The translations under genes were made by a program, and so were the position numbers. Positions 4,259-61,060 of a DNA stretch of 61,711 nucleotides are shown here, piece after piece. Location: positions 91,465 to 153,175 of the forward strand of contig JAVCCW010000018.1 of assembly GCA_030765235.1 (NCBI GenBank), read 5' to 3'. The stretch is from Candidatus Gorgyraea atricola. Its GTDB lineage: Bacteria > Omnitrophota > Gorgyraeia > Gorgyraeales > Gorgyraeaceae. Positions within the stretch are counted from its first letter, which is position 1. Every line of letters starts with the position of its first letter. The notes beneath the pieces were generated by a model, which worked only from the letters and a program-made list of their open reading frames with translations, did not search any database and was not told where the DNA came from.

Positions 4259-4902
4259 ACAATCCTATCTATGTCACTAAAGTCCCTTTTTACCCTATAT
4301 ATCCTATATATACTTTTTGCCCCAAATATATCCAATATTGCATCCCTCTGCCCAAAACCTATCTCTAAAAATATAGAGCCCTTCTCTCTTAAATACACTG
4401 GCGCCTCATTCTCTATGCGCCTGTAAAAATCCAAGCCATCCTCTCCGCCATACAGGGCTCTTCTTGGCTCGCAGCGCACCTCTTCCTGCAGCCATTCAAA
4501 ATCAGCCTTTTTTACATACGGCGGGTTGCATACTATTATATCAAATTTCTCTCTTTTTTCCAACGGTAAACCTTTAAAAAGATCGCCTTCGTAAAATGTA
4601 ATGTTCTTCTCAACCTTATGACGCGTAGCATTTTTTCTTGCAATCTCAAGACTTGCCCCTGAAATATCCGTAGCAACGATTTCTGCATCAGGAAGCGCAT
4701 GCGCCAAACTAACAGCAATATTCCCCGACCCAGTACAGAGATCCAACACCCTTGTCCCTTGTCCCCTGCCCCTTGTCCCTTCCAACACCTCCCAAACAAG
4801 CATCTCCGTCTCCGGCCTCGGAATAAACACGTCTTTATTCACGACAAAGTCCAGTCCCATGAAATCAGTACGACCTTCTGTATATTGAATAGGTTCAATC
4901 AT
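4240..4902 (-). CDS. prmC: release factor glutamine N5-methyltransferase, short form lacking the N-terminal helical domain
   Basis: It has the SAM motif VLDLCTGSGNI and the NPPY motif, and sits directly downstream of prfA. It is only 220 aa and carries an in-frame GGGACAAG-type repeat (TRGRGQGTR). Confidence 0.8.
   Translation of the reverse strand: MIEPIQYTEGRTDFMGLDFVVNKDVFIPRPETEMLVWEVLEGTRGRGQGTRVLDLCTGSGNIAVSLAHALPDAEIVATDISGASLEIARKNATRHKVEKNITFYEGDLFKGLPLEKREKFDIIVCNPPYVKKADFEWLQEEVRCEPRRALYGGEDGLDFYRRIENEAPVYLREKGSIFLEIGFGQRDAILDIFGAKSIYRIYRVKRDFSDIDRIVWISLL
4742..4789 (-). repeat. GGGACAAG-type repeat (30 nt) flanked by a 9-bp direct duplication, in frame in prmC
   Basis: On the plus strand, tccaacacc (4742-4750), then cttgtcccttgtcccctgccccttgtccct, then tccaacacc (4781-4789). 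It encodes VLE-GTRGRGQGTR-VLD. Confidence 0.85.
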
Positions 4903-7504: not shown

Positions 7505-8047
7505 TCACACTCCTAATTGTTTCCAGATCTTCCTGACCTGGGATAGTGTTTTTTTCTTCGATCCGCTATTATCTATGGTAAAGTCTGCAAGCGTCAGCTT
7601 TTTTTTTAAACTCGCCTGCATCCTTATTCTCTGTAAGCTGTCCTTTTTCCTTGAGTCGGCTTTGACAACGATTATTTTGTCCATATTTTTATAAAAATCA
7701 CTCTCTATCAGAAGCGCGGCATCCACAACAATCTTTCTCTTTTTATTTCTTCGAATTATTTTATTTATTTCTTTTATCGCAGATGGATGTACTAATTTAT
7801 TCAATAGATCCAATCTCGATCTATTACTAAACACGATCTCTGCAAGCCTGTGCCTGTGGATATTCTTTCTCGCATCAAGTATGCCTGCTCCGAAATGCTT
7901 AATGATCTTTTTGTACACTTGTTTAGGGCGCTCCATCAGGGAATGGCAAACCCTGTCAGCGTCGATCACAAAGGCGCCGCACCTCGCAAACATCTTTGCA
8001 ACAGTACTCTTGCCGCTGCCATAATTACCCGTGATTCCTATTAACAT
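7505..8047 (-). CDS. coaE: dephospho-CoA kinase
   Basis: [16 protein letters not shown]-loop at the N-terminus. The ATG at 8047 is preferred over the GTG-initiated extension to 8077 that overlaps polA. Confidence 0.85.
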
Positions 8048-10770
8048 TCTTCCATCTCCAGCCAATTCTTCCCGCACTTCACTGTTACCTTTACAGGCAC
8101 GCGCAATTTTACAGCTCCCTCCATCTTTGTGCGGATAAGCTCCTTCATTGTCTCAAGCTCTTTCTTCGGCGCCTCGAACACCAGTTCATCATGCACCTGG
8201 AGCGTCATCACAGAAGAGAGTTTTTGCTTTTTTATTTCCTTGTGAATATCTATCATTGCGATCTTTATAAGGTCAGCTGCTGAGCCCTGTACAGGCGCAT
8301 TGATCGCTATCCTCTCAGCCTGCTGCTGTTCTCTGGCGCCGCCTGTATTTATCTCAGGGATATATCTTCGTCTGTTAAAAAGCGTTGTTACGTACCCTAT
8401 ATCCCTGGCGCTCTCGATCGTATCCTCCATATAAGTCTTTACGCGCGGATATCTCTCGAAATATGCGTCTATAAACTGTTGTGCGCTTGCCGGATCAATA
8501 GAAAGGCCTCGAGACAAACCAAACGCGCTAATACCATAGACAATACCAAAGTTTACTGTCTTGGCATTCGAACGCATCTCAGGGGTAACGCCCTTTTCAT
8601 CTACGTCAAAGATCAGGGACGCGGTATGCGTGTGTACATCTATGTCTTTTTCAAATGCGTCTACCAGCTCCTCGTCGCCTGATAAATGCGCCAGGATCCT
8701 CAGTTCGATCTGCGAGTAATCCGCTGCCACGATATATCTATCTTTTTCTCCAATAAACGCCTTTCTGATTCTTCTACCCTGCTCTGTCTTAATAGGTATA
8801 TTTTGCAGGTTTGGCTTACTGGAAGAAAGCCTGCCTGTAGCTGTAACTGTTTGATTAAACGACGTGTGAAGCCTCCCTGTTTTTTTATTTATAAGTTCGG
8901 GCAGCGCGTCTATATATGTTGATTTCAGCTTTGACAGTTCTCTATACAGCAAAAGTTCTTTTGGTAATGGATGCACGCTCGATAATCTCTCCAATACACC
9001 TACATCCGTTGAAAAGCCTGTCTTTGTCTTTTTTATCACTGGCAGTTCCAGCTGCTCAAACAGGATCTTGCTCAGCTGCTTTGGTGAATTTATATTAAAT
9101 TCACCCCCTGCCATTTTATAAATATTTTTTACTGTGTCAGCTAAAATCGCCTCTACCTCTTTTGATTCCTTCTTTAATAAGGCAGTGTCTATCTTTACGC
9201 CATTTCTCTCTATCTGCGACAGCACTTCTACCAAAGGCATCTCTATATCATTAAAAAGGCTGGACAGTTCCTTTTTGAAAAGCTCTTTTTCTAAGATCTG
9301 TTTCAGTCTCAACGTAACATCGCTATCCTCGCAGGAATATTCAGAAAGGCTATCCAGGGGCACCTCGTCCATGTTTATCTTTTTTTTGCCAGAGCCTAAA
9401 AGATCTGTCATTGATATCATCTTGTGGTCAAGGTATTCAAATGCAATGTCATCGAGATTATGATTAAGCTTTGAAGGATTTAATAAATACGACGCGATCA
9501 TCGTATCGAACTCGATCCCCTTAAGCTCTATACCCTGCATTGCCAGGATAAGCTTTTCATACTTGATATTTTGCCCGATCTTTTTTATCTTTTCGTCCTC
9601 TAGGATTGGTTTCAGAGCACTAAACGCATACGCCATCCCAACCCCTTGTCCCTTGTCCCTTGCCTGCCCCGTACGAAATCTTTGATTTTCGTATGGGGTC
9701 CCTTGTCCCTTCGCTAACGCCACATAGTATGCCTTGCCTGGTTCCCAGCAAAACGAAACACCAAGTGGCCTTGCCTGCAAAGGATCCTCGCCTGTAGTTT
9801 CGAAGTCTAAGACAAACGAATCCTGCTTCTTCAATTTTTTCACAAGCTCATCAAATTTGGCCTTATTGGTTATGGTCTCGTAGCTGGCCTCTTGCCGCAC
9901 CTGAGAATCTTGAGACGAAAACTCTTTTGCAAAGGCCTTGAATTCCAGGTCTTTAAAGATACCCAAAAGTCTTTGTGTATCAGGTTCACTCAAGCGCATG
10001 GATTCTTCGTCTATATCTATAGGCACAGCGCTATCCAGGATAGCCAGCTCCTTTGACATGTGAGCGCTCTCTTCGCCGTCCTTTAAAGTCTTTCTTTTTG
10101 AATCGCTTTTTATCTTATCAAGATTCTTGTAGAGCATGCCTATATCACCAAACTCCTTTATTAAATCAATGGCTGTCTTTTCGCCTATGCCGTGCACGCC
10201 TGGTATGTTATCTGTCTGGTCCCCTGCAAGCGCCATAAGATCCACGATACTCTCAGGCCCCAGGCCGGAAAACCTCTCTTCCACCTTTTTTCTATCATAA
10301 ATAAGGCCTTCCTTATGCGTGGAACATATCTTTATATTCTCGCTTACGAACTGCAACATATCTTTATCGCCAGTCATTACGTAGGTCATTATGTCTTTTT
10401 TTGAAACCTTTTTGGCGATCGTGGCAAGGATATCATCTGCCTCAAAGCCCTGTTTTTCAAATATCGGAATATTATACGCCGATACTACCTCTTTTATGAG
10501 CGCCATCTGCGAGACAAGGTCATCTGGCATGGGTTTTCGCGTTATCTTATAATCCTTGAATTTCTTATGCCTGAATGTCGGGCCTTTTAGATCAAAGGCT
10601 ATAGCGAGATAATCCGGTTTTTCGCTAGCGAGCAACTTTTTGAGCATCAACACAAATCCGTAGACCGCGTTTGTCGGCATGCCCTTCGAGTTTCTGAGCT
10701 CTTTTATGGCATAAAAAGCCCTGTAACAATAAGAATTTCCATCAATCAAAAATAATTTCTTCTTTTTCAT
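8041..10770 (-). CDS. polA: DNA polymerase I
   Basis: The 909-aa ORF has a 5'-nuclease domain, an exonuclease-like domain and family A polymerase motifs (ADYSQIELRILAH, QVHDELVFE). It contains the in-frame 67-nt repeat element. Confidence 0.93.
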   Translation of the reverse strand: MKKKKLFLIDGNSYCYRAFYAIKELRNSKGMPTNAVYGFVLMLKKLLASEKPDYLAIAFDLKGPTFRHKKFKDYKITRKPMPDDLVSQMALIKEVVSAYNIPIFEKQGFEADDILATIAKKVSKKDIMTYVMTGDKDMLQFVSENIKICSTHKEGLIYDRKKVEERFSGLGPESIVDLMALAGDQTDNIPGVHGIGEKTAIDLIKEFGDIGMLYKNLDKIKSDSKRKTLKDGEESAHMSKELAILDSAVPIDIDEESMRLSEPDTQRLLGIFKDLEFKAFAKEFSSQDSQVRQEASYETITNKAKFDELVKKLKKQDSFVLDFETTGEDPLQARPLGVSFCWEPGKAYYVALAKGQGTPYENQRFRTGQARDKGQGVGMAYAFSALKPILEDEKIKKIGQNIKYEKLILAMQGIELKGIEFDTMIASYLLNPSKLNHNLDDIAFEYLDHKMISMTDLLGSGKKKINMDEVPLDSLSEYSCEDSDVTLRLKQILEKELFKKELSSLFNDIEMPLVEVLSQIERNGVKIDTALLKKESKEVEAILADTVKNIYKMAGGEFNINSPKQLSKILFEQLELPVIKKTKTGFSTDVGVLERLSSVHPLPKELLLYRELSKLKSTYIDALPELINKKTGRLHTSFNQTVTATGRLSSSKPNLQNIPIKTEQGRRIRKAFIGEKDRYIVAADYSQIELRILAHLSGDEELVDAFEKDIDVHTHTASLIFDVDEKGVTPEMRSNAKTVNFGIVYGISAFGLSRGLSIDPASAQQFIDAYFERYPRVKTYMEDTIESARDIGYVTTLFNRRRYIPEINTGGAREQQQAERIAINAPVQGSAADLIKIAMIDIHKEIKKQKLSSVMTLQVHDELVFEAPKKELETMKELIRTKMEGAVKLRVPVKVTVKCGKNWLEMEEC
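9645..9711 (-). repeat. 67-nt GGGACAAG/hairpin element, copy A (in frame in polA)
   Basis: It is 66/67 identical to 24059-24125. It has an internal 12-bp hairpin, ccccgtacgaaa (9667-9678) / tttcgtatgggg (9687-9698), flanked by cccttgtccctt direct repeats. Confidence 0.9.
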
Positions 10771-10817
10771 GGATTGCTGTATGAAATGGAAGGATTTATG
10801 TGCGAAAATTAGTGAAG

Positions 10818-12069: not shown

Positions 12070-13530
12070 CTATTTTATACTTTTGGAAAAATATCCTCCA
12101 GTCATGGCGTCCAGATCTGCAGTGAGTTCTTCTACGCGAAGCGCGCTTTCCATTTTATTCTTTATGTCAGTTGGCGGTGAAAGCTCAAGCTCTATCTGCA
12201 ACCTGCGACGCTCAAAATATGTCCTAGTGATCTCGTCAAGTACATCATCCCTTAGCTGCACCATGAGCTTTGATCTTATGTCTATTGTAGTCTGGTTAGG
12301 ATTCCAGATGATTTCGCCAAGGTCCCATTTAGCAGAAACACCCCAGTCGTGCGGGCCTGTGTAATACCTATCTGCTCCGCTGTCATAATTTATAGTCTTA
12401 TCATAATCCACTGACACTTCCGGCAATAAAGGCTTCATTCTTGCCCCTCGCCTCCAGTTTTTTATTTTATCCGGATGCACCTCTGCGTATTCAATAGCTG
12501 CTTCCTGGATCTCCCTGATCGTAGGCTCATAGTCAAAATCTTCAAACACATCTCCTTCATCAAAAAAGCCGAGGCTGGGCCTCGGCTTTTTTGTATTATG
12601 CAATCCCTTATCTGTTGCGACCCAGATCCTCTTATTGCTGTCGATTGATAAAGAGTAAGCCTTGTTCGCTGACATGCCTTTATATAGCGCTGTCCAGCTC
12701 TGGTCTTTTTTATTGAAAATAAAAATGCCTTTATCTGTTGCCGCATAAAGATCGTCTTTAAATAAAAGTCTTTTTATCTTTTGGGATAATAATCCGCTGG
12801 ATGGAAACACGCCCCATGTTTCTCCTGTATTGCTGCTTGTAAATATCCCTGAGTCGGTCGCGAGATAAATTTTTCCCTTGTCAATCGCGATGCTATTGAC
12901 TGGTTTAGTTGAAGTCGCCGCATAATCTGCTTCATCGCTGTCATATTCTGACTCTTCTACAGCAGTCACAAATACCCTTTTCCATTTTCCCTCTCTTCCT
13001 TTATATACACCTGTTTCTGCCGCGAGAAAATCATGATCACCTAGAAACGCGACCCACTTTACGCTAAGATCCTGATCTTTTTTCCAAGTTGCGCAATTAT
13101 CACTGCTAATAAAAAGACCTCTTCTTGTCCCAAGATAAATATCGCCATTCCGGGAAAAGGCCACATGCGATACATTATTCTCTTTTGCCCCTACACCTTT
13201 AAACACCTTCTTCCATTTGCTTTTTCCATCAATGCTTTTAAATGCGCCTCTTTCCGTGCACACAAACACTGCCTTTCTTGAAACCGCTACGAAATTAATA
13301 CTATTCCCATCCTCTCTTGCGGTAAATACTACGGTCCAACTCTCACCGCTGTTCTCGCTCCTGTACATCTTCTTCTCAGACGAAGCATAAATAACACCCA
13401 CCTTGGTAGGGTCCACCGCGACCTCTTTCATCTCAGCCTCGCTTATTCCCGTTACTATGTCCCATGCGTGGTCGGCGAATACGCTGGAACAGCACAAAAT
13501 TACCGCCAGTAAAATTAAAACATGCTTCAT
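12070..13530 (-). CDS. secreted Asp-box (BNR-like) beta-propeller repeat protein
   Basis: It has a signal peptide and repeated SxDxGxxW-like motifs (SENSGESW, SIDGKSKW, SSDNCATW, SSNTGETW). A GCCGAGG hairpin repeat is embedded in frame (KKPRPSLGFF). Confidence 0.65.
   Translation of the reverse strand: MKHVLILLAVILCCSSVFADHAWDIVTGISEAEMKEVAVDPTKVGVIYASSEKKMYRSENSGESWTVVFTAREDGNSINFVAVSRKAVFVCTERGAFKSIDGKSKWKKVFKGVGAKENNVSHVAFSRNGDIYLGTRRGLFISSDNCATWKKDQDLSVKWVAFLGDHDFLAAETGVYKGREGKWKRVFVTAVEESEYDSDEADYAATSTKPVNSIAIDKGKIYLATDSGIFTSSNTGETWGVFPSSGLLSQKIKRLLFKDDLYAATDKGIFIFNKKDQSWTALYKGMSANKAYSLSIDSNKRIWVATDKGLHNTKKPRPSLGFFDEGDVFEDFDYEPTIREIQEAAIEYAEVHPDKIKNWRRGARMKPLLPEVSVDYDKTINYDSGADRYYTGPHDWGVSAKWDLGEIIWNPNQTTIDIRSKLMVQLRDDVLDEITRTYFERRRLQIELELSPPTDIKNKMESALRVEELTADLDAMTGGYFSKSIK
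12562..12592. repeat. GCCGAGG-family hairpin (A6-stem-loop-T6) inside the Asp-box protein CDS
   Basis: The sequence is aaaaaa gccgaggc tgg gcctcggc tttttt. It has the shape of a perfect bidirectional terminator but is read through in frame as KKPRPSLGFF. Confidence 0.85.
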
Positions 13531-13620: not shown

Positions 13621-13667
13621 GCATAAACGGGTCACAAAATAATGCCTGAGAGACAGACCAACCCCTT

Positions 13668-13706
13668 AACTTTATACTTTTGTGACACACAGAAAAGTAT
13701 AAAGTT
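13668..13706 (-). terminator. stem-loop at the end of the receiver gene; carries the conserved 30-nt motif shared with 16861-16890
   Basis: aactttatactttt (13668-13681) pairs perfectly with aaaagtataaagtt (13693-13706). It overlaps the stop codon at 13705-13707. No clear U-tract follows on the transcribed strand, so terminator function is inferred. Confidence 0.5.
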
Positions 13707-16857: not shown

Positions 16858-16890
16858 CTTAACTTTACATTTTTGTGACACACAGAAAAG
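16858..16890 (-). repeat. second copy of the cttaacttta..ttttgtgacacacagaaaag motif
   Basis: It is identical at 31 of 33 nt to 13665-13697. It lies between the GT2 stop and the -35 of the cassette promoter. Confidence 0.8.
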
Positions 16891-18598: not shown

Positions 18599-18670
18599 CA
18601 ACTTTACTTGGCAAGGCTGGACCTCGGCTTTTTTAAAAAAGCCGAGGTCCAGCCTTGCCAAGTAAAGTTG
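18599..18670. repeat. 72-bp perfect palindrome of the GCCGAGG family (gspE-gspG spacer)
   Basis: The 36-nt arm caactttacttggcaaggctggacctcggctttttt and its exact reverse complement abut at 18634/18635. TTCCGCG boxes flank it at 18589, 18674 and 18684. Confidence 0.9.
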
Positions 18671-22850: not shown

Positions 22851-23369
22851 CTATCTAGCTTTTTCCTTTGCTATCCACTCATCCACTCTTAGCCTGTCAA
22901 ACCTCCACTCTTTACCGTCTTTAAACGCGGGTATCTTTCCTGAATTTGCCCAGTCCATTATATTTGAGGCCTCTACCTCAAGGTACTTTGCCAGCTCATT
23001 CACGCTAAAGACCCTGCTTCTTTGGCTAGACTGATTGAGCATGCGGCACTTTCCCTGTATAACAGCGCCTGGCTCAACAGCCAAAACAGGTGTTGTCAAG
23101 TCTCCCACAATATGCGCAGTCGAAAGCACCCTTAATTCTTTTGTAGAAGCGATATTACCTGTGATCTTTCCAGCCACCACCACTTCTTCGCCATTTATGT
23201 CCGCGCGAACAGAGGCATTGTCCCCTATAGTAAGAATACCTTTTGTATCCAGCTTCCCTTCAAAGTCTCCATTGATCCTCAGATTTACAGGATCCTTGAA
23301 CGCCAAAGACCCCTGCATACTGGCATCTACATCCAGTATCTTCTCTTCATTCTTGTCTTTTCTACCCAT
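22851..23369 (-). CDS. bactofilin-domain protein fused to C-terminal excisionase-type HTH
   Basis: It has a bactofilin-like beta-helix repeat pattern (LRINGDFEGKLDTKGILTIGDNASVRADINGEEVVVAGKITGNI...VEPGAVIQGKC). The C-terminal segment is SVNELAKYLEVEASNIMDWANSGKIPAFKDGKEWRF. The ATG at 23369 is preceded by AAAGGAGG. Confidence 0.7.
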   Translation of the reverse strand: MGRKDKNEEKILDVDASMQGSLAFKDPVNLRINGDFEGKLDTKGILTIGDNASVRADINGEEVVVAGKITGNIASTKELRVLSTAHIVGDLTTPVLAVEPGAVIQGKCRMLNQSSQRSRVFSVNELAKYLEVEASNIMDWANSGKIPAFKDGKEWRFDRLRVDEWIAKEKAR

Positions 23370-23388
23370 ATCCTGCCTCCTTTCTTTT

Positions 23389-23805
23389 TTACACAACCTT
23401 TCTCAATACATAAAGTGCGGCCAGGGCAATAGCGGTTGTTACATATCCTGCTACATAAAAACCGCAGCCAACTGCCAGGCCTATACCTGCAACAGTCCAT
23501 AAACTCGCTGCTGTTGTAAGGCCCATAACAGATGCGCCCGAACGTATAATCGTGCCTGCGCCTAAAAATCCAATGCCTGTCAGCACCCCAGCAGCTATCC
23601 TTGCCGGATCTGCAGTACCAACACTGCCATACGTCATGGCTATATACAAAGAGGTCAACATGACAAGTGCAGACCCAACGCAAACAAGTATATGCGTCCT
23701 GAACCCGGCAATTTTTTTATTGTGCTTCTCCCTCTCGATACCGACTAAACCACCCAACAGCGCAGCCAACCCCAATCTCACAATCACCTGCATATCTGTA
23801 ATCAT
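23389..23805 (-). CDS. mgtC: MgtC/SapB-family membrane protein
   Basis: RLGLAALLGGLVGIEREKHNKKIAGFRTHILV is the MgtC N-terminal membrane domain signature. Confidence 0.8.
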   Translation of the reverse strand: MITDMQVIVRLGLAALLGGLVGIEREKHNKKIAGFRTHILVCVGSALVMLTSLYIAMTYGSVGTADPARIAAGVLTGIGFLGAGTIIRSGASVMGLTTAASLWTVAGIGLAVGCGFYVAGYVTTAIALAALYVLRKVV

Positions 23806-24788
23806 ACACGCCCTCCTAACCTGTATGCCAGGCCTGCTACCATTGCAGCATTATCTGAGCATAATTGTAGCGGCGGAAAAAAGACCTTAAGGCTTCTAAA
23901 CATCGCCTCTCTCGCAATCATCTCCCTAAATCGAGAATTAGCGCTTACTCCTCCGCCGATGACAAGTGTTTTTAAGTTATGTTTCTCGAGCGCCTTGATA
24001 GTATTATTAACAATAACCTTAAGCGCTGCTTCCTGAAAACTAGCAGCTATATCCTCTTCTTGTCCCTTGTCTCTTGCCTGCCCCGTACGAAATCTTTGAT
24101 TTTCGTATGGGGTCCCTTGTCCCTTAACATAATACAAAACTGCAGTCTTAATTCCACTAAAGCTAAAATCAAGGCCGCCTTTAATTGGCCTACATGTAAA
24201 CTTTATGGCTTTTGCATCGCCTTTTTTCGCGAGCCTGTCTATTATAGGTCCACCTGGATATCCTAATCCTAGAATCTTCGCCACCTTATCATATGCCTCG
24301 CCAATTGCATCATCTAAAGTGTCACCGAGCGTTGTAAAACTGTCAAAGCCCTCCACAAGACAAAGCCTCGTGTGCCCGCCAGATATGATAAGCCCGATAA
24401 AAGGAAACCTCGGCGCATCCTTGCACATCAATGCAGAATAGATGTGAGCCTTAAGATGATCCACAGCAATAAACTCTACACCTAATGCATAAGACAATGC
24501 CTTTGCGCATGAAATTCCACATAGAAGCGCTCCCACGAGCCCAGGCCCTTGTGTCACAGCCACAGCATCCACATCATTTATCTTCAGGCCAGCATTATTC
24601 AAAGAGCGATTTACTACCTTGTCTATATTCTCTACGTGATGCCTTGTTGCGATCTCAGGCACTACACCGCCGAACCTCTTATGCTGTTTCAAGCTCGACG
24701 AAACTACATTGGATAAAATCTTTATGCCATTTTCTACTACACTCGCGGCTGTCTCGTCACAGGAAGTCTCGATGCCTAAAATCAACAT
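23802..24788 (-). CDS. tsaD: tRNA N6-adenosine threonylcarbamoyltransferase
   Basis: MLILGIETSCDETAASVV, GGVVPEIATRHH and GPGLVGALL give the Kae1/TsaD pattern. It contains the in-frame 67-nt repeat element. Confidence 0.92.
   Translation of the reverse strand: MLILGIETSCDETAASVVENGIKILSNVVSSSLKQHKRFGGVVPEIATRHHVENIDKVVNRSLNNAGLKINDVDAVAVTQGPGLVGALLCGISCAKALSYALGVEFIAVDHLKAHIYSALMCKDAPRFPFIGLIISGGHTRLCLVEGFDSFTTLGDTLDDAIGEAYDKVAKILGLGYPGGPIIDRLAKKGDAKAIKFTCRPIKGGLDFSFSGIKTAVLYYVKGQGTPYENQRFRTGQARDKGQEEDIAASFQEAALKVIVNNTIKALEKHNLKTLVIGGGVSANSRFREMIAREAMFRSLKVFFPPLQLCSDNAAMVAGLAYRLGGRV
24059..24125 (-). repeat. 67-nt GGGACAAG/hairpin element, copy B (in frame in tsaD)
   Basis: It is 66/67 identical to 9645-9711, in the same orientation and reading frame. 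It encodes KGQGTPYENQRFRTGQARDKGQ. Confidence 0.9.
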
Positions 24789-24789
24789 A

Positions 24790-26046
24790 CTATTTCTCGC
24801 TGTATATGATGATGCCCTTCAGCACATCTACAGCGCTCATGATCTGATTATCGTATTCTATCTTTTCCTTTTTTTCTTCATCCTCTTTCTTCTCTTGCAG
24901 TTCATCAAATACAGCAAGGGTATCTTCTTCTTTTTCCTCGACCTTTGGCTTTTTCTTGTATTCCACTTCTATGTCCGGCATTATACCCTCGCCATGGATC
25001 GAACGGCCATTAGGCGTAAAATACTTGCTGGTCGTGAGTCGCACTGCTGAACCATCTGAGAGAGGCACTACTGTCTGGACAGATCCCTTGCCAAAGCTCT
25101 TTGTGCCCATGATAAGACCCCTCTTATAATCCTGAATAGCTCCTGCTACTATCTCAGAAGCGGACGCGCTTCCGCTATTTACCAGAATAACCATTGGATA
25201 ATCAAGGTGCTTTTTCCTGCCTTTTGATTTGAATATAAAATTCTGACTTTCAACACGACCTTTTGTTGAAACAACGACCTTGCCTTCTTCCAGAAACTTT
25301 TCTGAGACACTTACTGCGGAATCAAGGAGGCCTCCGGGATTATTCCTGAGATCAAGGATAAAACCCTTCATGCCCTCTTTTTCAAGATCCCTCAAGCCTA
25401 TCTCCAGATCCTTGTGGGTATTTTCCTGAAATTCTATAAGTCTTATATATCCAATGCCGTCCTCTATGATCTCCACCTTCTTGATACTTTCTATTTTTAT
25501 GATAGAGCGGGTTATTGTAAAATCCAGGAGCTTTCTTTCCTCTTCCCGCAGAACAGTCACGCGCACATCTGTGCCTGGTTTTCCACGCAGCTTTTTGACT
25601 GCCTCTATAAGCGTTAGGTCTCTTGTAATCTCGTCTTCTATCTTTACGATCTTATCGCCAGCCTGAAGGCCTACTTCATGAGCAGGTGTGCCATCTATTG
25701 GCGATATTATTGTAAGGAGATTGTCTTTTATGGTGATCACTATACCTATGCCTCCGAACTCGCCCTCAGTCTCTATCTTCATCTCCTGATACATGTCAGG
25801 ATCCATGAACTGACTGTATGGATCAAGTGACGCGAGCATACCCTTCATCGCGCCGTATATAAGATCTTTTGACTTTGCCTCTTCAACATAATCCGAGCGT
25901 ATGAGGCTCATTGCATCTGAGAAAAGCTCTAGTTCCTTGTAGAGATTATCTGAAGTTTCTTCTTTTTCAGCAAAACTAATACTATAAAACAAAGCCACTG
26001 CCAAAAAACCTATCACCATCATCCCTACAGCTATCCTTCTCCTCAT
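24790..26046 (-). CDS. ctpA: carboxyl-terminal processing protease (peptidase S41) with PDZ domain
   Basis: It has a PDZ segment (GLQAGDKIVKIED) and the S41 catalytic region (VNSGSASASEI...GTKSFGKGSVQ), plus an N-terminal anchor. Confidence 0.82.
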   Translation of the reverse strand: MRRRIAVGMMVIGFLAVALFYSISFAEKEETSDNLYKELELFSDAMSLIRSDYVEEAKSKDLIYGAMKGMLASLDPYSQFMDPDMYQEMKIETEGEFGGIGIVITIKDNLLTIISPIDGTPAHEVGLQAGDKIVKIEDEITRDLTLIEAVKKLRGKPGTDVRVTVLREEERKLLDFTITRSIIKIESIKKVEIIEDGIGYIRLIEFQENTHKDLEIGLRDLEKEGMKGFILDLRNNPGGLLDSAVSVSEKFLEEGKVVVSTKGRVESQNFIFKSKGRKKHLDYPMVILVNSGSASASEIVAGAIQDYKRGLIMGTKSFGKGSVQTVVPLSDGSAVRLTTSKYFTPNGRSIHGEGIMPDIEVEYKKKPKVEEKEEDTLAVFDELQEKKEDEEKKEKIEYDNQIMSAVDVLKGIIIYSEK

Positions 26047-26100: not shown

Positions 26101-27523
26101 AGGTAATTAACTTGTTTCTTAGAATCTCGTTTACCTTCTTTGGATCCGCCTTGCCCTTTGTCTTTGCCATGACCTTGCCAACCAAGGCCATAATAGCATT
26201 CTCTTTGCCGCTTTTAAAGTCATTGACTATCTTTGCGTTTTCAGCGATGACCTCATCTATTGCCTTTTCTATCGCGCCCTGGTCAGAGATCTGCTCCAGG
26301 CCTTTTTCTTTTACTAGCGCGGCAGGGTCTTTAGCGCTTTCGATCATATCTATTAATAGCGTCTTTGCGACTTTTCCTGTAATCGCGCCGCTATCTATCA
26401 TCTTAAGCATACCCGTAAGATGCTCGACTTTCAAGCTTAACTTGCCAATTGTCAGATTCCTTTCCTTCATGTACGCAGAGACATCTCCCATGAGCCAGTT
26501 AGCCACTATCTTTGGCTTCTTGTATATCTTGACGCATTCCTCAAAATAATCTGCGATTGCTTTTTCGCTGACCATGACAGATGCATCGTACTCAGAGAGC
26601 TTATAATCTGAGACAAGCCTTTTCTTTCTCGGTTCTGGAAGCTCTGGTATATCCTTTCTTATGCCCGCAAGTAGTTTTTCTTCAAAATCAAACGGCACAA
26701 GGTCTGGCTCTGGAAAATATCTATAATCATGCGCCTCTTCTTTTGAGCGCATGGATTCCGTAACATCTCTTGCTGAATCATAGAGCCTTGTTTCTTGCAC
26801 GATTCTTTGGCCGCTTTCCAAAAGCTCTTTTTGTCTGTCGCGCTCGTATTCCAGCGCAGCCTTGACCCCCTTGAACGAATTCATGTTCTTTATCTCTGTC
26901 TTTACGCCAAGCTCTTTGGCGCCTGGCTTTCTCAAAGAGATATTGGCATCGCAGCGTAAACTCCCTTCTTCCATATTGCAATCAGACACGTCTACATACT
27001 CAAGGATTGATTTAAGGACTGTGAGATAGGTGTAGGCCTCTTCCGGAGAATTTATGTCGGGTTCGCTTACGATCTCTAAAAGCGGTGTGCCAGAGCGATT
27101 AAAATCTACGAGACTGTAGTCTTTCTGATGAAAAAGCTTGCCTGTATCCTCTTCCAGATGCACCCTTGTTATGCCAATGCGTTTTTCTTTGCCATCCGCC
27201 ATGATCGGAAGATAGCCATGCGCTGACAGGGGCTGGCTGAATTGGGAGATCTGGTATGCCTTTGGCAGGTCTGGGTAAAAATAATTTTTCCTATCAAATC
27301 GTATCTCTTTGGCGATCTGGCAATTAAGCGCTATGGCTACCTTTGCACCAAGCTTTAGCGCGTCTCTATTCAAAACAGGCAGAGAACCTGGAAACCCCAG
27401 ACACACGGGACAGGTCTGAGTATTGGGCGCAGCGCCAAACTCTGTCGAGCACCCACAAAAGACCTTGCTCTTTGTCTTTAGCTGTAAGTGGACTTCTAAG
27501 CCGATTACTGTTTCGTACATCAT
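26099..27523 (-). CDS. gatB: Asp/Glu-tRNA amidotransferase subunit B
   Basis: YETVIGLEVHLQLKTKSKVFCGC gives a full-length GatB pattern. It lies in gatCAB order. Confidence 0.93.
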   Translation of the reverse strand: MMYETVIGLEVHLQLKTKSKVFCGCSTEFGAAPNTQTCPVCLGFPGSLPVLNRDALKLGAKVAIALNCQIAKEIRFDRKNYFYPDLPKAYQISQFSQPLSAHGYLPIMADGKEKRIGITRVHLEEDTGKLFHQKDYSLVDFNRSGTPLLEIVSEPDINSPEEAYTYLTVLKSILEYVDVSDCNMEEGSLRCDANISLRKPGAKELGVKTEIKNMNSFKGVKAALEYERDRQKELLESGQRIVQETRLYDSARDVTESMRSKEEAHDYRYFPEPDLVPFDFEEKLLAGIRKDIPELPEPRKKRLVSDYKLSEYDASVMVSEKAIADYFEECVKIYKKPKIVANWLMGDVSAYMKERNLTIGKLSLKVEHLTGMLKMIDSGAITGKVAKTLLIDMIESAKDPAALVKEKGLEQISDQGAIEKAIDEVIAENAKIVNDFKSGKENAIMALVGKVMAKTKGKADPKKVNEILRNKLIT

Positions 27524-27529
27524 ATCCTT

Positions 27530-28987
27530 TTATCCAAAAAAGCCGAGGCTGGACCTCGGCTTTTTATTTTTGCCGAGGTCCAGCCTCGGCTTTTTTGTAA
27601 CTTGCTCGTAATTATGCGCTATTCTTAAAATCATCTCTTCGTCAAATGCCTTGCCGAGTATTTGGAGTCCTATGGGCAACTTATTCTTTGTGAATCCGCA
27701 TGGAATCGATATGCCAGGGATGCCAGCTAAATTCGCGGAGATCGTAAATATATCTGAGAGATACATCGTTAGCGGATCTGCTGTTTTTTCGCCTATCTTA
27801 AACGCGGGTGTTGGTGTAGTCGGAGTGACTATGGCATCGTATTTCTTGAACGCGTCCTCAAAATCTTTCTTTATCAATGTCCTGACCTTTAGCGCCCGTA
27901 AATAATATGCATCGTAATAACCGCTGGATAGCGCAAATGTACCTAAGATAATTCTGCGCTTTGCCTCATCGCCAAAACCTTGCGCCCGAGTCTTCTTGTG
28001 CATGTCAATGACTGACTTTGCCTGACTTGCTCTCAGGCCGTACTGCACGCCGTCGAATCGCGCTAGGTTTGAACTTGCCTCAGCTGTTGCCACCACATAA
28101 TACACAGCCACTGCGTATTCTGTGTGCGGCAGGCTTATGTCCTCGCAGATCGCGCCCAGCGACTCAAGTTTCTTTATTGCATCCTGCATGGACTTCTTCA
28201 CCTCAGGGTCTATGCCCTTAATAAAATATTCTTTTGGAATGCCAAGCTTCAGGCCTTTAATATCTTTTTTTATCAATGATGGATAGTCAGGCACGCTCGT
28301 ATCTACAGATGTTGAATCCATAGGGTCATGACCTGATATGATCTTTAAAAGAAGCGCTGCGTCCTCTACATCCTTTGTCAATGGCCCTATCTGATCAAGC
28401 GAAGAACCAAATGCTATAAGCCCGTATCGCGAAACTCGTCCGTATGTTGGTTTTAGACCTACCACTCCGCAAAGCGCAGCAGGCTGTCTGATCGATCCGC
28501 CTGTATCTGAGCCCAGCGCCCATATCGCGCTATCTGCTGCAACAGCTGCCGCAGAACCACCGCTAGAGCCGCCAGGAATGCGCTCCATATCCCACGGATT
28601 CCTTGTAGTGCCATAGCAGGACGTCTCTGTAGAAGAGCCAAATGCAAACTCGTCCATATTGGTCTTGCCCATGAGCACAGCATCTGACTGAAGCAATTTC
28701 TCGATTACTGTAGCATCATAGGGGGGTTTAAATCCTTTTAATATATTCGAAGAGCACGTAGTGAGCTCATCCTTTACACAGATATTGTCTTTGATGAAAA
28801 TCGGCAAACCCTTATGCGTCTTTGCCCTTTCAAGCACCTTCTCTTTATCAAAATTAACTACTGCATTAAGCTTTTTATTCTTTTGTACGACATCTATAAG
28901 ACTATTACATATATCTATATGCGATATGTCGCCTTTATTTAATAATTTAATTAACTCATGCGCAGTAAGTTTATTTAGCTCCATCAT
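27530..28987 (-). CDS. gatA: Asp/Glu-tRNA amidotransferase subunit A
   Basis: It has the amidase signature [12 protein letters not shown]. The last ~22 codons ([21 protein letters not shown]) are encoded by a double GCCGAGG hairpin repeat. Confidence 0.93.
27536..27596. repeat. two tandem GCCGAGG-family hairpins in opposite orientation, forming the 3' end of gatA
   Basis: The sequence is A6-gccgagg-ctgga-cctcggc-T5 a T5-gccgagg-tccag-cctcggc-T6. The loops are reverse complements of each other. Confidence 0.88.
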
Positions 28988-43612: not shown

Positions 43613-43651
43613 TTTTTATCTCCTTAGGTATTCAAAATTCGTCTATCGTTT

Positions 43652-43742
43652 ATCGGTTGCGTAGTTCGAATCGTTGATCGTTATACGGTTGCGTTTTTAC
43701 GATACACGAACAACGATTGCCGTAACGAGTTACGCAACCGAT
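43652..43742. mobile_element. MITE-like element with CGGTTGCGTA terminal inverted repeats, copy 1
   Basis: atcggttgcgta (43652-43663) and tacgcaaccgat (43731-43742) are perfect 12-bp inverted repeats. There is an extra internal tacggttgcgt. It shares a 22-mer with the copy at 61081-61102, in inverted orientation. Confidence 0.6.
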
Positions 43743-45007
43743 CAACGTATAACGAATCTTCTCGGGTCTGTGATTTTTCCTTTAATCGCCGACGCTGCAA
43801 CTGTTGCAGGCGAGGCAAGATATATAAACGCGTCAGGATTGCCCATCCTGCCCTTAAAATTCCTATTCGCTGTTGAGATAACCTTTTCTCCTTTTGATGG
43901 TACTCCATTATGTGTTCCCACGCACGGACCGCATCCAGGCGCAACCACGCACGCGCCTGAAGCAACAAAATCTGAGATAATACCCTTTTTCATTGCCTGC
44001 TTAAATATGGTACTGGAGGCAGGGGCTATTATCATCTTTACATCTTTATGCACGCGCCTTCCTTTAAGAATCGAAACTGCTATTTTCAAATCCTCTAATC
44101 TCCCGTTCGTGCACGTGCCCAAAAATGCCTGATCTATTTTTGTATTCTTTATTTTACTGATAGGTGCAACATTGTCAACTGTATGCGGCTTAGCCACCTG
44201 CGGCGCAATCTTACTAACATCATACTCAATAACCTCAGCATACCTCGCATCTTTATCACTCCTTGTCCCTTGCCCCTTGTTGCTTGTCCCTATAGCTTTA
44301 AGATATCTATACGTCGTCGCATCCGGCTCCATAAGCCCTGCCTTAGCGCCCATCTCAATAGCCATATTAGAAATCGTAAATCTCGCGTCCATGCTGAGTC
44401 TCTTTATGTAATCGCCTGTAAACTCAACTGCCTTATATGTGCAATAACCTGCTCCCAGATCTCCGATTATATACAAGATCACATCTTTGGAATAAACTCC
44501 CTTTTTTGTCTTGCCCTTTAAAATGATCTTAACTGTCTCTGGTATCTTAAACCAATTCTTACCAGAGGCTATTGCTACAGCCAGATCAGTCGAGCCCATT
44601 CCTGTTGAGAACGCGCCCAGCGCGCCATAGGTGCATGTGTGCGAATCAGCGCCTACAACAAGGTCCCCAGGTCCAACAAGCCCTGACTCTGGTATGACCT
44701 GATGACAAACTCCGCACCCTATATCAAACATCTTCACATTCTGTTCCTGCGAAAATTCGCGCATCTTTTTATGGATCTCTGAAACCCCTATATTCGGACT
44801 AGGCGCACTATGATCAATGACCATGCAAAATTTTTTCTTATCAAATACCTTTTTGGCGCCCAATTTTTTAAATGAATCTATAATAAGACTGCTCGTGCCA
44901 TCCTGACCAAAACAGAAATCTACCTTACAGAGGACAGTGTCTCCAGGCCTTACATCCTTATTGCAGTGTGATTTAAATATTTTTTCGGTTATTGTCTTCC
45001 CAGGCAT
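43742..45007 (-). CDS. aconitase-superfamily dehydratase large subunit (LeuC/HacA-like)
   Basis: The 421-aa ORF has Fe-S cluster Cys ligand regions (VGADSHTCTYGALG, GTCTNGR, PGCGPCVG). It carries an in-frame GGGACAAG-type repeat (NKGQGTRSDK). Confidence 0.8.
   Translation of the reverse strand: MPGKTITEKIFKSHCNKDVRPGDTVLCKVDFCFGQDGTSSLIIDSFKKLGAKKVFDKKKFCMVIDHSAPSPNIGVSEIHKKMREFSQEQNVKMFDIGCGVCHQVIPESGLVGPGDLVVGADSHTCTYGALGAFSTGMGSTDLAVAIASGKNWFKIPETVKIILKGKTKKGVYSKDVILYIIGDLGAGYCTYKAVEFTGDYIKRLSMDARFTISNMAIEMGAKAGLMEPDATTYRYLKAIGTSNKGQGTRSDKDARYAEVIEYDVSKIAPQVAKPHTVDNVAPISKIKNTKIDQAFLGTCTNGRLEDLKIAVSILKGRRVHKDVKMIIAPASSTIFKQAMKKGIISDFVASGACVVAPGCGPCVGTHNGVPSKGEKVISTANRNFKGRMGNPDAFIYLASPATVAASAIKGKITDPRRFVIR
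44261..44291 (-). repeat. GGGACAAG-type repeat in frame in the dehydratase large subunit
   Basis: The plus strand ccttgtcccttgccccttgttgcttgtccct encodes NKGQGTRSDK. Confidence 0.75.
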
Positions 45008-47778: not shown

Positions 47779-47803
47779 TACTCCTCCTTTTATAAAGTAA
47801 TCC

Positions 47804-47859
47804 AAACTCTAAATCCCAAACTCTAAATCCTAAACTCTAAATCCTAAACTCTAAATCCT
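47804..47859. repeat. four tandem copies of a 14-mer (aaactctaaatcc[c/t])
   Basis: The copies lie at 47804, 47818, 47832 and 47846, in the rpsD-rpoA spacer. Confidence 0.9.
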
Positions 47860-47951
47860 AAACAAACTCAAAACTCCAAATCCCAAACTATACTGTTTTG
47901 AGTTTGTGATTTTGGGTTTTGGATTTGTTTAGAGTTTCGTGTTTAGAGTTT
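47860..47951. repeat. inverted-repeat block related to the 14-mer array
   Basis: acaaactcaaaac (47862-47874) pairs perfectly with gttttgagtttgt (47895-47907). Further tttgggttttgga and tttagagttt segments are complementary to the upstream array. Confidence 0.75.
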
Positions 47952-48581
47952 TTATTTTGAATATAACTCTACAATAAGTTGTTCCTTTATATCCATTCCA
48001 ACGTCGCCTCTGCCAGGAAGACGCGCGATGTCTACCTTAAGGGCCTGCACGTCCTGCTTTAACCAATCAGGCACGCCTCTATCCTTTACCTTCTCAAGTG
48101 TCTCCTTTGTGTTTTTGACGATTTTATCTTTTGGCTTTAGCTGTATGGCATCACCTGTCTTAATAGAATACGAAGGTATATTTACCTTTCTATTGTTGAC
48201 GCGGACCAGTCCATGCATTACCATTTGTCTTGCATGAGCCCTTGACACAGCAAAGCACGAACGAAATATTACATTATCGAGGCGCGTCTCCAGTAACTGC
48301 AATAACTTTTCGCCGGTTACGCCCTTTGACTTTGCTGCGATTTTGAAATACTTACTAAACTGCCTCTCCAATACGCCGTAAATCTTTTTTACCTTTTGCT
48401 TTTCTCTTAACTGCAGGCCATAGTTGGACATCTTAAAGCGCCTGCCTTTTCCATGCTGGCCTGGCGCATAGCTACGCCTGTCAAATGCGCACTTATCTGA
48501 GTAACATCTGATGCCTTTTAGAAAAAGCTTTTCTCCCTCGCGCCTGCAAACCCTGCATGATGAACCTGTGTACCTTGCCAT
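47952..48581 (-). CDS. rpsD: 30S ribosomal protein S4
   Basis: [23 protein letters not shown]... matches uS4. The ATG at 48581 lies 10 nt after the rpsK stop, and the longer track ORF is an extension into rpsK. Confidence 0.92.
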
Positions 48582-57814: not shown

Positions 57815-58270
57815 TTATCTCCTTTTGCTTGTAGTAGCCTTTTGTTTTTTAACTGGTGCTTTGGCCTTCCTTGTCACTTGTCCCTTGTCACTTGTCCCTT
57901 TTTTCGCCGCAGCTTTCTCCGTCTTCGCCTCCGGCCTCACAATCTTGCTCAACTCCAGCGTAATATGCGCTGTCCTATGTTTGATCATAGTTGCCCTGCC
58001 CATTGAAGCAGCCCTGAACCTCTTTAGCATCGGCCCCTTGTCTGCCTTTATTAAAGAAATATAAAGATCTGCTGGCAATAGATGCGCCTTTTTATCCGCG
58101 CTATCAATAGCTGAGTTCAAGAGCCTCTTTATGTAAATAGTGGGTCTCTTCTCAATCACATCCAAAAGCAATGACGCCTTTACAACGCCCATACCTTTTA
58201 TAAGATTTGTGACATTGCTCGCTTTTCTTGGCGAAACCCTTAAATATCGCGCTATGACTCTAGTTACCAT
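57815..58270 (-). CDS. rplV: 50S ribosomal protein L22 with basic C-terminal extension
   Basis: The ATG at 58270 gives [17 protein letters not shown]..., matching uL22. The C-terminal tail (about 35 aa) contains a GGGACAAG-type repeat, and the longer track ORF extends into rpsS. Confidence 0.9.
57869..57900 (-). repeat. GGGACAAG-type tandem repeat (2 x cttgtcacttgtccct) in the rplV 3' extension
   Basis: The plus strand ccttgtcacttgtcccttgtcacttgtccctt encodes [13 protein letters not shown]. Confidence 0.8.
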
Positions 58271-60388: not shown

Positions 60389-61043
60389 CTTTTCCCTTGT
60401 CGCTTGTCACTTGTTGCTTGTCCCTGACCAAAAGCCTCTTTTTCGCCGCGCGTATCTCCAGGTACCCATTCTTCGAGCCCGGCACTGCGCCCTTGACCAA
60501 TAATATATTCTTTTCCTTATATACCTTAATGATCTCAAGATTCTGAACTGTCCTTCTCTTGTTGCCCATACGGCCAGGAAGATGTAAACCCTTCCATACC
60601 CTGGAAGGATAAGAGCTGCCTCCTATAGAACCTACTCTTCGATGATGCATTCCACCATGGCTCTTTGGACCGCCAGCCCAACCCCATCGCTTTACACCAC
60701 CTTGAAACCCCTTACCTATAGAAGTGCCTGCTATATCAACAAAATCCTTTTCCTTAAATATATCCACCGTGACTTTCTTACCAACGCTGACACCTTCGCC
60801 AGCATCAAAAGGCAGCTCCTTGACAAAGGCATTTGGTTCTGCATTTGCCTTTTTATATAGACCCTTTTCTGAACGAGAAGTATTCTTTGCCTTTTTCTTG
60901 CCAAACCCAAGCAAGACCTTATTTTCAAGCACATTTAAAACCGTGCAAGGACCTGCCTCTATCACAGTAACAGGTACAAATACCCCATCTTCTGTAAAAA
61001 CCTGCGTCATCCCTAATTTTTTACCTAATAAACCTAGTTTCAT
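60351..61043 (-). CDS. rplC: 50S ribosomal protein L3 with repeat-derived C-terminal extension
   Basis: MKLGLLGKKLGMTQVF... matches uL3. The tail RDKQQVTSDKGKDGTGKEKDKKKG runs through a GGGACAAG-type repeat. Confidence 0.92.
   Translation of the reverse strand: MKLGLLGKKLGMTQVFTEDGVFVPVTVIEAGPCTVLNVLENKVLLGFGKKKAKNTSRSEKGLYKKANAEPNAFVKELPFDAGEGVSVGKKVTVDIFKEKDFVDIAGTSIGKGFQGGVKRWGWAGGPKSHGGMHHRRVGSIGGSSYPSRVWKGLHLPGRMGNKRRTVQNLEIIKVYKEKNILLVKGAVPGSKNGYLEIRAAKKRLLVRDKQQVTSDKGKDGTGKEKDKKKG
60394..60425 (-). repeat. GGGACAAG-type repeat at the rplC/rplD junction
   Basis: The plus strand cccttgtcgcttgtcacttgttgcttgtccct lies just upstream of the rplD ATG (60388). It is read through by rplC as RDKQQVTSDKG. 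Confidence 0.8.
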
Positions 61044-61060
61044 TCTTGTCTTTCGCTATT

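Follow-up and report, generated by a model that had tools for sequence, protein, structure and literature searches.

A 36-nt palindromic module nested in heptamer arrays of core genes appears to be a copy of an undescribed miniature selfish repeat family in Omnitrophota

The described repeats that come closest to the element treated here, a 67-nucleotide (nt) composite in the tsaD gene of Candidatus Gorgyraea atricola, are of several kinds. The window, as we call the whole 61,711-nt stretch that was analysed (contig JAVCCW010000018.1, positions 91,465-153,175), carries the element twice. Rickettsia palindromic elements (RPEs; PMC10969869, PMC3733652) resemble it in that they are palindromes lying in frame in many unrelated housekeeping genes, contribute a peptide where the protein fold can accommodate it and encode no transposase; the in-frame hosts that we met are tsaD, polA, hisH, ligA, a tgt-like gene, a rluD-like gene and others. 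Repetitive extragenic palindromic (REP) sequences, including the intragenic ones tagged with GTAG/CGTC (PMC3733652) and the systems known as REPIN and REP/RAYT (REP-associated tyrosine transposase; PMC3116915), are dispersed imperfect palindromes of 20-40 nt with a short tail. Some REPs are intragenic, notably in replication and repair genes and in Opitutus terrae of the PVC group (PMC3733652), and their irregular hairpins are recognised as single strands (PMC3733652, PMC3116915). MITEs (miniature transposable elements with inverted repeats; PMC10969869) likewise end in inverted repeats around an interior that varies, are non-autonomous and occasionally give in-frame fusions. Finally, the G-rich heptamer repeats GGGAATC of Xanthomonas and GGGGAYT of Nostoc prefer about four units (PMC4692102), and the fourfold AAGGGAC repeat that surrounds our module follows the same G3N4 pattern. 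Set beside these systems, the tsaD element appears to be a copy of a miniature selfish repeat family not yet described in Omnitrophota.

The 67-nt sequence occupies positions 24059-24125 in tsaD and 9645-9711 in polA. An earlier note made from the letters alone had claimed that the two copies differ at one nucleotide, and this holds: 66 of 67 positions are identical, which points to their recency, and no such match arose in 100 shuffles. The sole mismatch, T at 24072 against C at 9658, is synonymous (AGA versus AGG). On the mRNA strand the order is (AAGGGAC)x2, the 36-nt module, then two heptamers plus AAG; spelled out, the tsaD copy reads AAGGGAC AAGGGAC, CCCATACGAAA-ATCAAAGA-TTTCGTACGGGG CAGG, C AAGAGAC AAGGGAC AAG. 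Its parts, and the gene that holds them, are the following.

23802-24788, minus strand: tsaD open reading frame (ORF), 328 aa, intact (Pfam PF00814, E=1e-93).
24059-24125, minus strand: composite 67-nt element in tsaD, encoding KGQGTPYENQRFRTGQARDKGQ.
24113-24125, minus strand: heptamer units 1-2 (AAGGGAC AAGGGA), the last C being common to the hairpin; read directly, and matching the bare-array units of locus L011.
24077-24112, minus strand: 36-nt hairpin module (32-nt hairpin plus CAGG tail), encoding PYENQRFRTGQA; exactly this segment is missing from L011.
24081-24112, no strand assigned: hairpin core with a 12-bp stem and an 8-nt loop, from folding.
24059-24076, minus strand: heptamer units 3-4 plus AAG (CAAGAGAC AAGGGAC AAG), holding the sole difference between the tsaD and polA copies; read directly.

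The 32-nt hairpin consists of CCCCATACGAAA, the loop and TTTCGTACGGGG, its first C being shared with the preceding heptamer, and AAAA facing TTT in the stem leaves one bulged A. On the plus strand the stem is fully paired with one G.U (G.T in DNA), giving -21 kcal/mol as RNA (z -6.5 to -7.4) and -10.4 kcal/mol as DNA, whereas the mRNA strand has one A.C mismatch and reaches -14.7 kcal/mol (z -3.3). No T-run follows the hairpin, the tail being TCCCTTG along one strand and CAGGCAAG along its complement; a promoter and terminator scan gave no signal at the element and no terminator-like site in 23300-25300, and an Rfam scan of the whole window returned 0 families at or above the gathering threshold. 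All three sense frames are stop-free and hydrophilic; the antisense frames are all more hydrophobic, and one of them contains a stop. Neither window copy shows a target-site duplication.

At the tsaD site, locus L011 (TsaD 87% identical; retrieved loci carry the prefix L) holds GTT (AAGGGAC)x4 AAG, and the window has exactly 36 nt more, at 24077-24112. Three further relatives from three samples (L008, L009 and L010; TsaD 91% identical) have a different 26-nt module, ATCCCTCGACTTCGCTCGGGACAGGC, in the same place, and the site exists in three allelic states among close relatives. The presence/absence difference for which the earlier note proposed to look at this exact site is therefore real, with L011 bare and L008-L010 filled by another module. 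Its picture of a single 22-aa insertion block stands in one part, since there is indeed an insert, and falls in another, since the block is composite and only 36 nt, or the 12 aa PYENQRFRTGQA, are new in tsaD relative to L011. The more distant tsaD of L031 (protein P0021) has a bare array too, and by parsimony the hairpin is thus a gain in the window's lineage.

The second copy tells a similar story with a larger insert.

9645-9711, minus strand: sister copy in polA, in a loop of the 3'-5' exonuclease domain (hairpin 9667-9698; gain 9655-9711).

The PolA ORF spans 8041-10770. Its three closest orthologues (94, 93 and 90% identical) lack the element and measure 890 against 909 aa, and element-free polA recurs in the independent assemblies L022, L023, L024, L025 and L026. 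Exactly where the window is longer, the empty site shows a native AAGGAACAAGGGG or GAGGGACAAGGGG; its DNA, GCG^AAGGAACAAGGGGTTGAG or ACTG AGGGACAAGGGGTTGAG, is native and already resembles 1.7 heptamers. What the window gained is 57 nt (19 aa), made up of two heptamers, the module and one heptamer. The assumption that polA had received the same inserted peptide as tsaD was accordingly right as to a gain and wrong as to its extent, which falls short of the whole 67 nt. A simple target-site duplication at polA is ruled out because the 57-nt gain holds three heptamers. Judged from these alignments, the composite as a whole emerges as a recent gain in polA. At a third gene, hisH, L030 carries the bare array ATAGGGAC (AAGGGAC)x3 AAGGG, and L012 carries an array of the L030 type with the hairpin module after unit 2 and a second module after unit 3. 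At three loci, then, aligned close relatives differ in the presence or absence of the hairpin module.

The host protein TsaD seems to be undisturbed. The element lies between FSFSGIKTAVLYYVK and EEDIAASFQE and leaves the reading frame open, as the earlier note had read it. H111, H115 and D312 are invariant in 107 TsaD orthologues and are the counterparts of the Fe ligands His111, His115 and Asp300 of Escherichia coli YgjD (PMC4330362); the offset of 12 between D312 and E. coli Asp300 equals the length of the hairpin-coded peptide. When TsaD of Thermotoga maritima, whose TsaB2D2E2 complex has been solved, is aligned, a 16-residue gap falls exactly on the insert. The AlphaFold2 model used here, from a 107-sequence run, has a mean predicted local distance difference test (pLDDT) score of 90.9 and a pTM of 0.88 and superimposes on the solved structures 4YDU and 6Z81 with a TM of about 0.9; it replaced a 26-sequence run with pLDDT 70.5, in which residues 167-246 fell below 50. 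The only segment with pLDDT below 50 in the model used is residues 227-238, PYENQRFRTGQA, between helices 211-223 and 241-269, and the hairpin-coded peptide is on this model predicted to be disordered. That TsaD is a pseudogene, the outcome that would have sunk the earlier note's reading, is ruled out by the invariant catalytic residues and the confident model. The loop itself varies from 8 to 41 aa (mode 12-13) in 115 orthologues at least 69% identical, with invariant flanks, in agreement with the earlier note, which has this region vary in length. The loop of hairpin-less orthologues is presumably as long as that of E. coli TsaD. Apart from the disordered, hypervariable loop that houses the element, TsaD is thus intact, and the idea that harmless surface loops are selected for fits these data.

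How far the family extends was asked of GTDB genomes and JGI metagenomes with the stem pattern CCCCRTACGAAA-N8-TTTCGTAYGGGG, which yielded 17 loci, namely 7 genome records and 10 metagenome contigs. Six of the 7 records are titled Omnitrophota metagenome-assembled genomes (MAGs) and one is labelled Planctomycetia; the contigs have no taxon label. By its homologues the window belongs to Candidatus Omnitrophota, and a HisH with the same element is 99% identical to an NCBI protein named Candidatus Gorgyraea atricola. With L005/L015 and L002/L016 each counted as one sequence, there are 15 distinct 32-nt-hairpin loci including the two window copies, 10 of them inside long ORFs. The element also occurs in the NCBI MAG protein P0241; no hairpin copy was found in viral contigs. 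Host genes could not usefully be counted by peptide search, because the 31-aa polA peptide gave just one match, the 64-aa fragment P0361, among 1.84 billion representatives.

Five loci from one sample share the AAGGGAC flanks and lie in frame and in sense in five genes, i.e., hisH, a membrane-protein-like ORF, a tgt-like gene, an Fe-S protein gene and the BRCT region of ligA. Together with tsaD and polA, the AAGGGAC lineage comprises seven copies in seven genes, all sense-oriented, all with 2 units before the module and 2.4 after it, and read in two frames: the same DNA gives either ...GQG-TPYENQRFRTGQA-RDK... or ...GTR-DPIRKSKISYGA-GKGQ... In a single lineage, then, the composite has spread to no fewer than seven unrelated genes.

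Beyond this lineage the hairpin is found among other heptamers. It stands between CGAACGA units in a rluD-like gene, where two MAGs share the site, and between CACGGAT units in tsaD of the MAG JAHJHC01, in the very loop used in the window; there the bulge sits on the other arm, which implies the opposite orientation. A reversed hairpin at this TsaD site is recorded for L002. The hairpin termini recur in other Omnitrophota MAGs inside CGAACGA, CACGGAT and CAGAGGA arrays, sometimes in tandem or nested. What stays constant is the pair of termini, CCCCRTAC(C)...(G)GTAYGGGG, together with a tail of the form CA[G/T/C/A]G; the interior measures 5-32 nt in a module of 23-50 nt. The interior may be CGAAA-loop-TTTCG, GCAA alone (L027), ATTCGCTTCGCTCA (L028), ACTCGCTTCGCTC (L029) or a 32-nt sub-hairpin (L007). 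L027 has three tandem short modules of 34 nt (CCCCGTACC-GCAA-GGGTACGGGG-CAGGC-AGAGGA) in one TsaD loop at 10671-10772, read in three frames that jointly restore the reading frame, and in L028 a single TsaD loop contains three nested modules. The copies that we term class II are flanked by 4-nt direct repeats, CACG twice in L007, CAAG in L014 and CGTG in L002; inside arrays a target duplication would not be visible, since the repeat units mask it.

Two observations stand beside this family. At L013 1836-1867 the 12-bp stems of the module (CCCCATACGAAA/TTTCGTATGGGG) enclose another loop and precede a T-run, resembling an intrinsic terminator, and it is possible that the hairpin evolved from such a terminator-like stem. 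A second conserved module, (C/T)CCCTCGRCTTCGCTCGGGA, often followed by CAGGC, occurs in both orientations in several lineages: L008 8438-8463, L012 284-303, L001 4036-4055, L007 7097-7116, L025 250-269, L028 761-780 and 835-854, and L029 5616-5635. It encodes peptides of the LDFARD or PSTSLG type, fills the tsaD site in the 91%-identical relative and appears as an insertion/deletion in a TPR gene beside polA in L022 and L025; the window has no copy.

The heptamer arrays form a layer of their own, which the earlier note had not noticed. That orthologues might generally have a loop of similar length and sequence proved half true, and the array is what is constant in this loop across the clade. 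Arrays of the AAGNNAC type, of about 4.4 units and without the hairpin, lie in four further window genes, all on the sense strand, and the heptamer pattern matches the window 13 times against 0.11 expected. The four arrays were identified from the sequence and their genes with Pfam.

4749-4781, minus strand: hairpin-less array AAGGGAC AAGGGGC AGGGGAC AAGGGAC AAGG in a prmC-like methyltransferase gene.
44261-44291, minus strand: hairpin-less, partly decayed array in an aconitase-family (LeuC-like) gene.
57869-57900, minus strand: AAGGGAC/AAGTGAC x4.4 without a hairpin, in rplV, where it falls in the C-terminal tail of ribosomal protein L22.
60396-60424, minus strand: decayed array, again without a hairpin, in rplC, where it falls in the C-terminal tail of ribosomal protein L3.

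Coding arrays almost always have 4.1-4.7 units whatever the heptamer, including heptamers without G-tracts, and seven is the commonest tandem-repeat period in the window and all fetched loci. Such arrays fill the same TsaD loop in essentially all Omnitrophota orthologues, many loops having a 7-aa period (NHESRITNHESR, DQRPKTKDQR, RQETRDKRQ, AQGSRLKAQG), and the hisH site has a segment of about 10 aa in all 119 parsable HisH orthologues, many again 7-aa periodic; lag-7 residue identity in the loops is 0.18 for TsaD and 0.17 for HisH, against about 0.04-0.08 at most other lags. At the prmC site the window and L022 have AAGGGAC-type units and L025 has (ATACTCG)x4 between flanks about 88% identical. 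The tsaD of L031 is 68% identical in nucleotides to that of the window, yet holds a perfect (AAGGGAC)x4 AAG, where about 10 differences would be expected over 31 nt. Because arrays are swapped at orthologous sites and perfect in divergent genes, these comparisons point to a process of homogenisation, copying or replacement at the DNA level rather than to selection on the peptide. A single heptamer per genome is not what is generally found: in L025 prmC holds ATACTCG and prfA ACTCCGA, L030 carries both AAGGGAC-type and CAGAGTA arrays, and most TsaD/PolA pairs seemingly on the same contig, as judged only by an equal length of the longest contig, differ in loop peptide. In trmD, an array at 2486-2518 (AAAGACT/AAAGACA x4.7) encodes KTKDKRLKT and is kept with small changes in L022 and L025; with this conservation it is an older or a constrained array.

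The explanation that we prefer, and to which we would give about half of our belief, is that the tsaD feature is one copy of a selfish, non-autonomous micro-repeat of REP/RPE type and not a functional motif of the host, a repeat probably tolerated rather than used, which would have spread between heptamer arrays or heptamer-like seeds. A first layer would be the array of about 31 nt, or 4.4 heptamer units, in the disordered TsaD loop; a second would be the REP-like 36-nt module in mid-array, with its inverted termini CCCCRTAC...GTAYGGGG, variable interior and CANG tail. The module, usually with two heptamers on each side, would be copied from array to array or into a native sequence that by chance resembles about 1.5 heptamers. 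The likeliest route would be copying primed by heptamer homology, by template switching in replication or gene conversion of short tracts, perhaps provoked by the hairpin stalling replication. We favour this route because the polA target already held AGGGACAAGGGG, because the tsaD and hisH recipients were existing arrays, and because a donor with 2 + 2.4 units together with frame selection reproduces the invariant 2 + 2.4 geometry. Selection would then remove copies that are out of frame, contain a stop or lie outside a tolerant loop; as the sense frames are open and hydrophilic, the survivors would be those found, sense-oriented and in frame in the loops of core genes. Both the copying mechanism and the neutrality for the host are what we infer from this pattern.

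Several observations weigh against this explanation. The copying event itself was not observed, and template switching is suggested by geometry and by a single seed-like target in polA. The termini, the bulged A and the A.C/G.T asymmetry are kept in lineages with other heptamers, and such conserved termini and irregularities are more typical of recognition by a protein, for example a transposase. Copies in L003, L005, L014 and L019 have no obvious heptamer-array flanks, and in L021 the left units are AAGTGAC and the right units AAGGGAC, so flanks are not always copied along with the module. As to strand, the 51 long ORFs of the window taken as genes (51/51) are all encoded by the minus strand, and the GC skew stays negative from end to end; for the strand bias of the element, gene orientation is consequently inseparable from replication strand.

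The best surviving alternative, possible but in our view doubtful, is that the 36-nt module is a true miniature transposon, moved in trans by an enzyme that recognises the hairpin or its inverted termini, be it a HUH tyrosine transposase of the RAYT/IS200-IS605 type, which works on single-stranded DNA, or a DDE transposase leaving a short target duplication, with the heptamer arrays as preferred target or as product of repeated insertion and excision. This would account well for invariant termini and CANG tail around an interior of 5-32 nt, for the conserved bulged A and strand-specific A.C/G.T irregularity, for the 4-nt direct repeats around the class II copies (two in L007, and L014 and L002) and for the copies outside arrays; RAYTs cleave REPs in vitro (PMC3733652), and the constant bare arrays of 4.4 units could be excision footprints, with GGGGCAGG- and GGGGCAAG-like remnants in the prmC and aconitase-family genes. 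It is harder to reconcile with the enzyme side, as no transposase-like ORF was seen by inspection within 3.5 kb of six copies or by Pfam among 10 window ORFs. Moreover, the window copies lack a target-site duplication, the polA gain of 57 nt with three heptamers exceeds the module, and the GTAG/CGTC tag of RAYT-associated REPs is absent.

A bolder proposal, which we hold to be rather unlikely, is that of a phylum-wide Omnitrophota system in which heptamer cassettes of about 31 nt, sited in the same disordered loops from one core protein to its orthologues (TsaD, HisH, PrmC and PolA, besides the tails of ribosomal proteins), are repeatedly overwritten by active, array-targeted copying, the hairpin module serving as vehicle or recognition site. 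If true, it would mean a mechanism not known so far, possibly enzyme-driven, that rewrites the loop-coding DNA of essential genes, and it would explain the 4.4-unit constancy, the heptamer swaps at orthologous sites and the identical arrays in genes 68% identical.

Clearly improbable is a dedicated templated activity, such as a reverse transcriptase or polymerase with a short repeat template or an array-specific gene conversion, that targets arrays already present, writes or overwrites them with their modules and so continually renews the loop-coding DNA of core genes. The array length that ignores the heptamer, the AAGGGAC and ATACTCG units at the prmC site, the perfect array shared by the 68%-identical tsaD genes and a periodicity kept across more than 100 orthologues would all suit it; yet no candidate enzyme or template was found, heptamers are mixed within a genome (two types in L025), most TsaD/PolA pairs presumed to share a contig differ, and frame selection, slippage and copy-paste can account for most of the pattern.

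Marginally less probable still is that the host keeps the hairpin as a functional structure, either an element of mRNA or antisense RNA concerned with processing, stability or translation pausing, or a DNA structure such as a G-quadruplex (G4) or a protein-binding site. Folding is significant on both strands, at the z values given above; the hairpin persists in a 211-nt mRNA context, the check that the earlier note had proposed; the sequence is conserved across lineages, and the stem with T-run in L013 looks terminator-like. The hairpin function in mRNA that the note had suggested nevertheless fares badly, since the hairpin is weaker on the mRNA strand (-14.7 versus -21 kcal/mol), is read in two frames, is reversed in L002 and is missing from close relatives, and a regulatory RNA role is for these reasons unlikely. 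The closest relatives do without it at both tsaD and polA, an unrelated module takes its place in the 91%-identical TsaD, the seven host genes are functionally unrelated, and neither an Rfam match nor a promoter or terminator signal was obtained. Four AAGGGAC units do form a G3N4 quadruplex motif, four-unit G-rich heptamer repeats are known (PMC4692102), and the polA copy and the prmC array fit the G4 pattern; the tsaD copy does not, and as it and most other lineages lack four G-tracts, the G-quadruplex was rejected as a general explanation.

That the inserted peptide is itself adaptive, having been selected in several enzymes as an interaction motif or as a linker that is flexible and charged, we regard as very improbable. 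The inserted peptides are hydrophilic and Gly-rich, and arrays lie in the same loops clade-wide and in the C-terminal tails of L22 and L3, but one and the same DNA yields two peptides without relation to each other (TPYENQRFRTGQA and DPIRKSKISYGA), arrays are perfect in DNA, synonymous positions included, between 68%-identical genes, the nearest relatives lack the peptide, and its predicted state is disorder. An assembly or chimera artefact deserves practically no weight: although an uncultured Omnitrophota genome, assembled from a metagenome, seems to be the source of the window, the element recurs with the same geometry in the independent assemblies L012, L017, L018, L020 and L021, made from other samples, and in P0241, and both window copies preserve long ORFs.

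The window holds other repeats besides. Near-identical terminator-like hairpins, AAGCCGAGG...CCTCGGCTTTTTT, often back to back, are intergenic at 601-654, 12548-12596, 18608-18661, 27522-27600 and 61509-61560, and some of them differ in presence from close relatives, the window having 27 nt more at 18626-18652 than L008 and 31 nt more at 611-641 than L025. The rpsD-rpoA spacer (47802-47960) has (AGGATTT AGAGTTT)n followed by an inverted copy, forming a large hairpin, and an array of this type also lies downstream of ligA in L021 (451-543). Palindromes built of heptamers occur as insertions/deletions of 141 nt upstream of tsaD in L008 and of 137 and 114 nt in L025. Two spacers share a 57-nt repeat, 75% identical, at 43641-43697 downstream of the aconitase-family gene and at 61048-61104 upstream of rplC. 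Two others share a 33-nt palindromic repeat, 94% identical, at 13665-13697 and 16858-16890, with a 25-nt insertion/deletion relative to L022 at 13678-13702, which suggests another small mobile palindrome.

If our preferred explanation, a selfish micro-repeat copied between arrays, is true, the element, with 36 nt, or 67 nt with its array, would be among the smallest mobile or copy-pasted repeats known, and its hosts are essential, universally conserved genes of an uncultured phylum. The inserts reveal which protein loops tolerate 10-40 extra residues; they also distort Omnitrophota orthologue alignments, phylogenomic markers and gene-length statistics, and could serve as fine-scale strain markers. 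The change of heptamer with length and periodicity kept, together with identical arrays in 68%-identical genes, points to a homogenising or overwriting process at the DNA level, the mechanism of which is now testable.

Measured against the known classes, the element stands apart, because the REP tag is missing, the size does not fit RPEs or MITEs and the coding strand is not avoided as it is by G4 repeats. RPEs span about 100-150 bp against 36 nt for the module here (67 nt with the array), belong to another phylum, are not nested in heptamer arrays and show no sequence similarity. The size and the stem-loop, with its 12-bp stem and 8-nt loop, are those of REPs; the ends, CCCC... and ...GGGG-CAGG, are not, and CGTAC occurs only inside the stem. 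REPs are mostly extragenic, while 10 of our 15 loci lie in long ORFs; nesting in heptamer arrays and conservation across genera are untypical of REPs, and neither inspection of the 3.5 kb around six copies nor the Pfam scan of 10 ORFs in the window brought up a RAYT gene. MITEs measure 70-300 bp, with terminal inverted repeats of 15-30 bp and clear target duplications, whereas the modules here have 23-50 nt and termini of 8-12 bp, with 4-nt direct repeats at L002, L007 (twice) and L014 and none at the window copies. The fetched loci, some 330 kb in all, yielded no parent element. An intrinsic terminator would need a T-run after the hairpin, and there is none. The G4 heptamer repeats avoid the coding strand (PMC4692102) and our element does not; furthermore, the four-unit rule extends here to heptamers without G-tracts, and the tsaD copy departs from the G4 pattern.

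Short tandemly repeated repetitive (STRR) sequences of cyanobacteria are alike in being tandem heptanucleotide arrays and unlike in phylum and sequence, which makes them an analogy only. Nostoc is also said to possess small dispersed repeats of 21-27 nt, conserved and hairpin-like, some of them inside heptamer arrays, which we treat as a lead only; these modules reportedly include insertions present in one strain and not in its relative, and they can nest. What sets the arrays described here apart from the cyanobacterial repeats is that throughout a clade they occupy orthologous positions, in frame, in core-enzyme loops. The cyanobacterial heptamer repeats and very small dispersed repeats may belong to a more general phenomenon. 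For Omnitrophota we found no description of such repeats in the literature, and a survey paper on the phylum makes no mention of repeats, transposases or hairpins. In-frame palindromes in housekeeping genes and four-unit heptamer arrays are already known; the constant array length, the replacement of one heptamer by another and the identical arrays in divergent genes form the unexplained part, and this part could be the more novel one.

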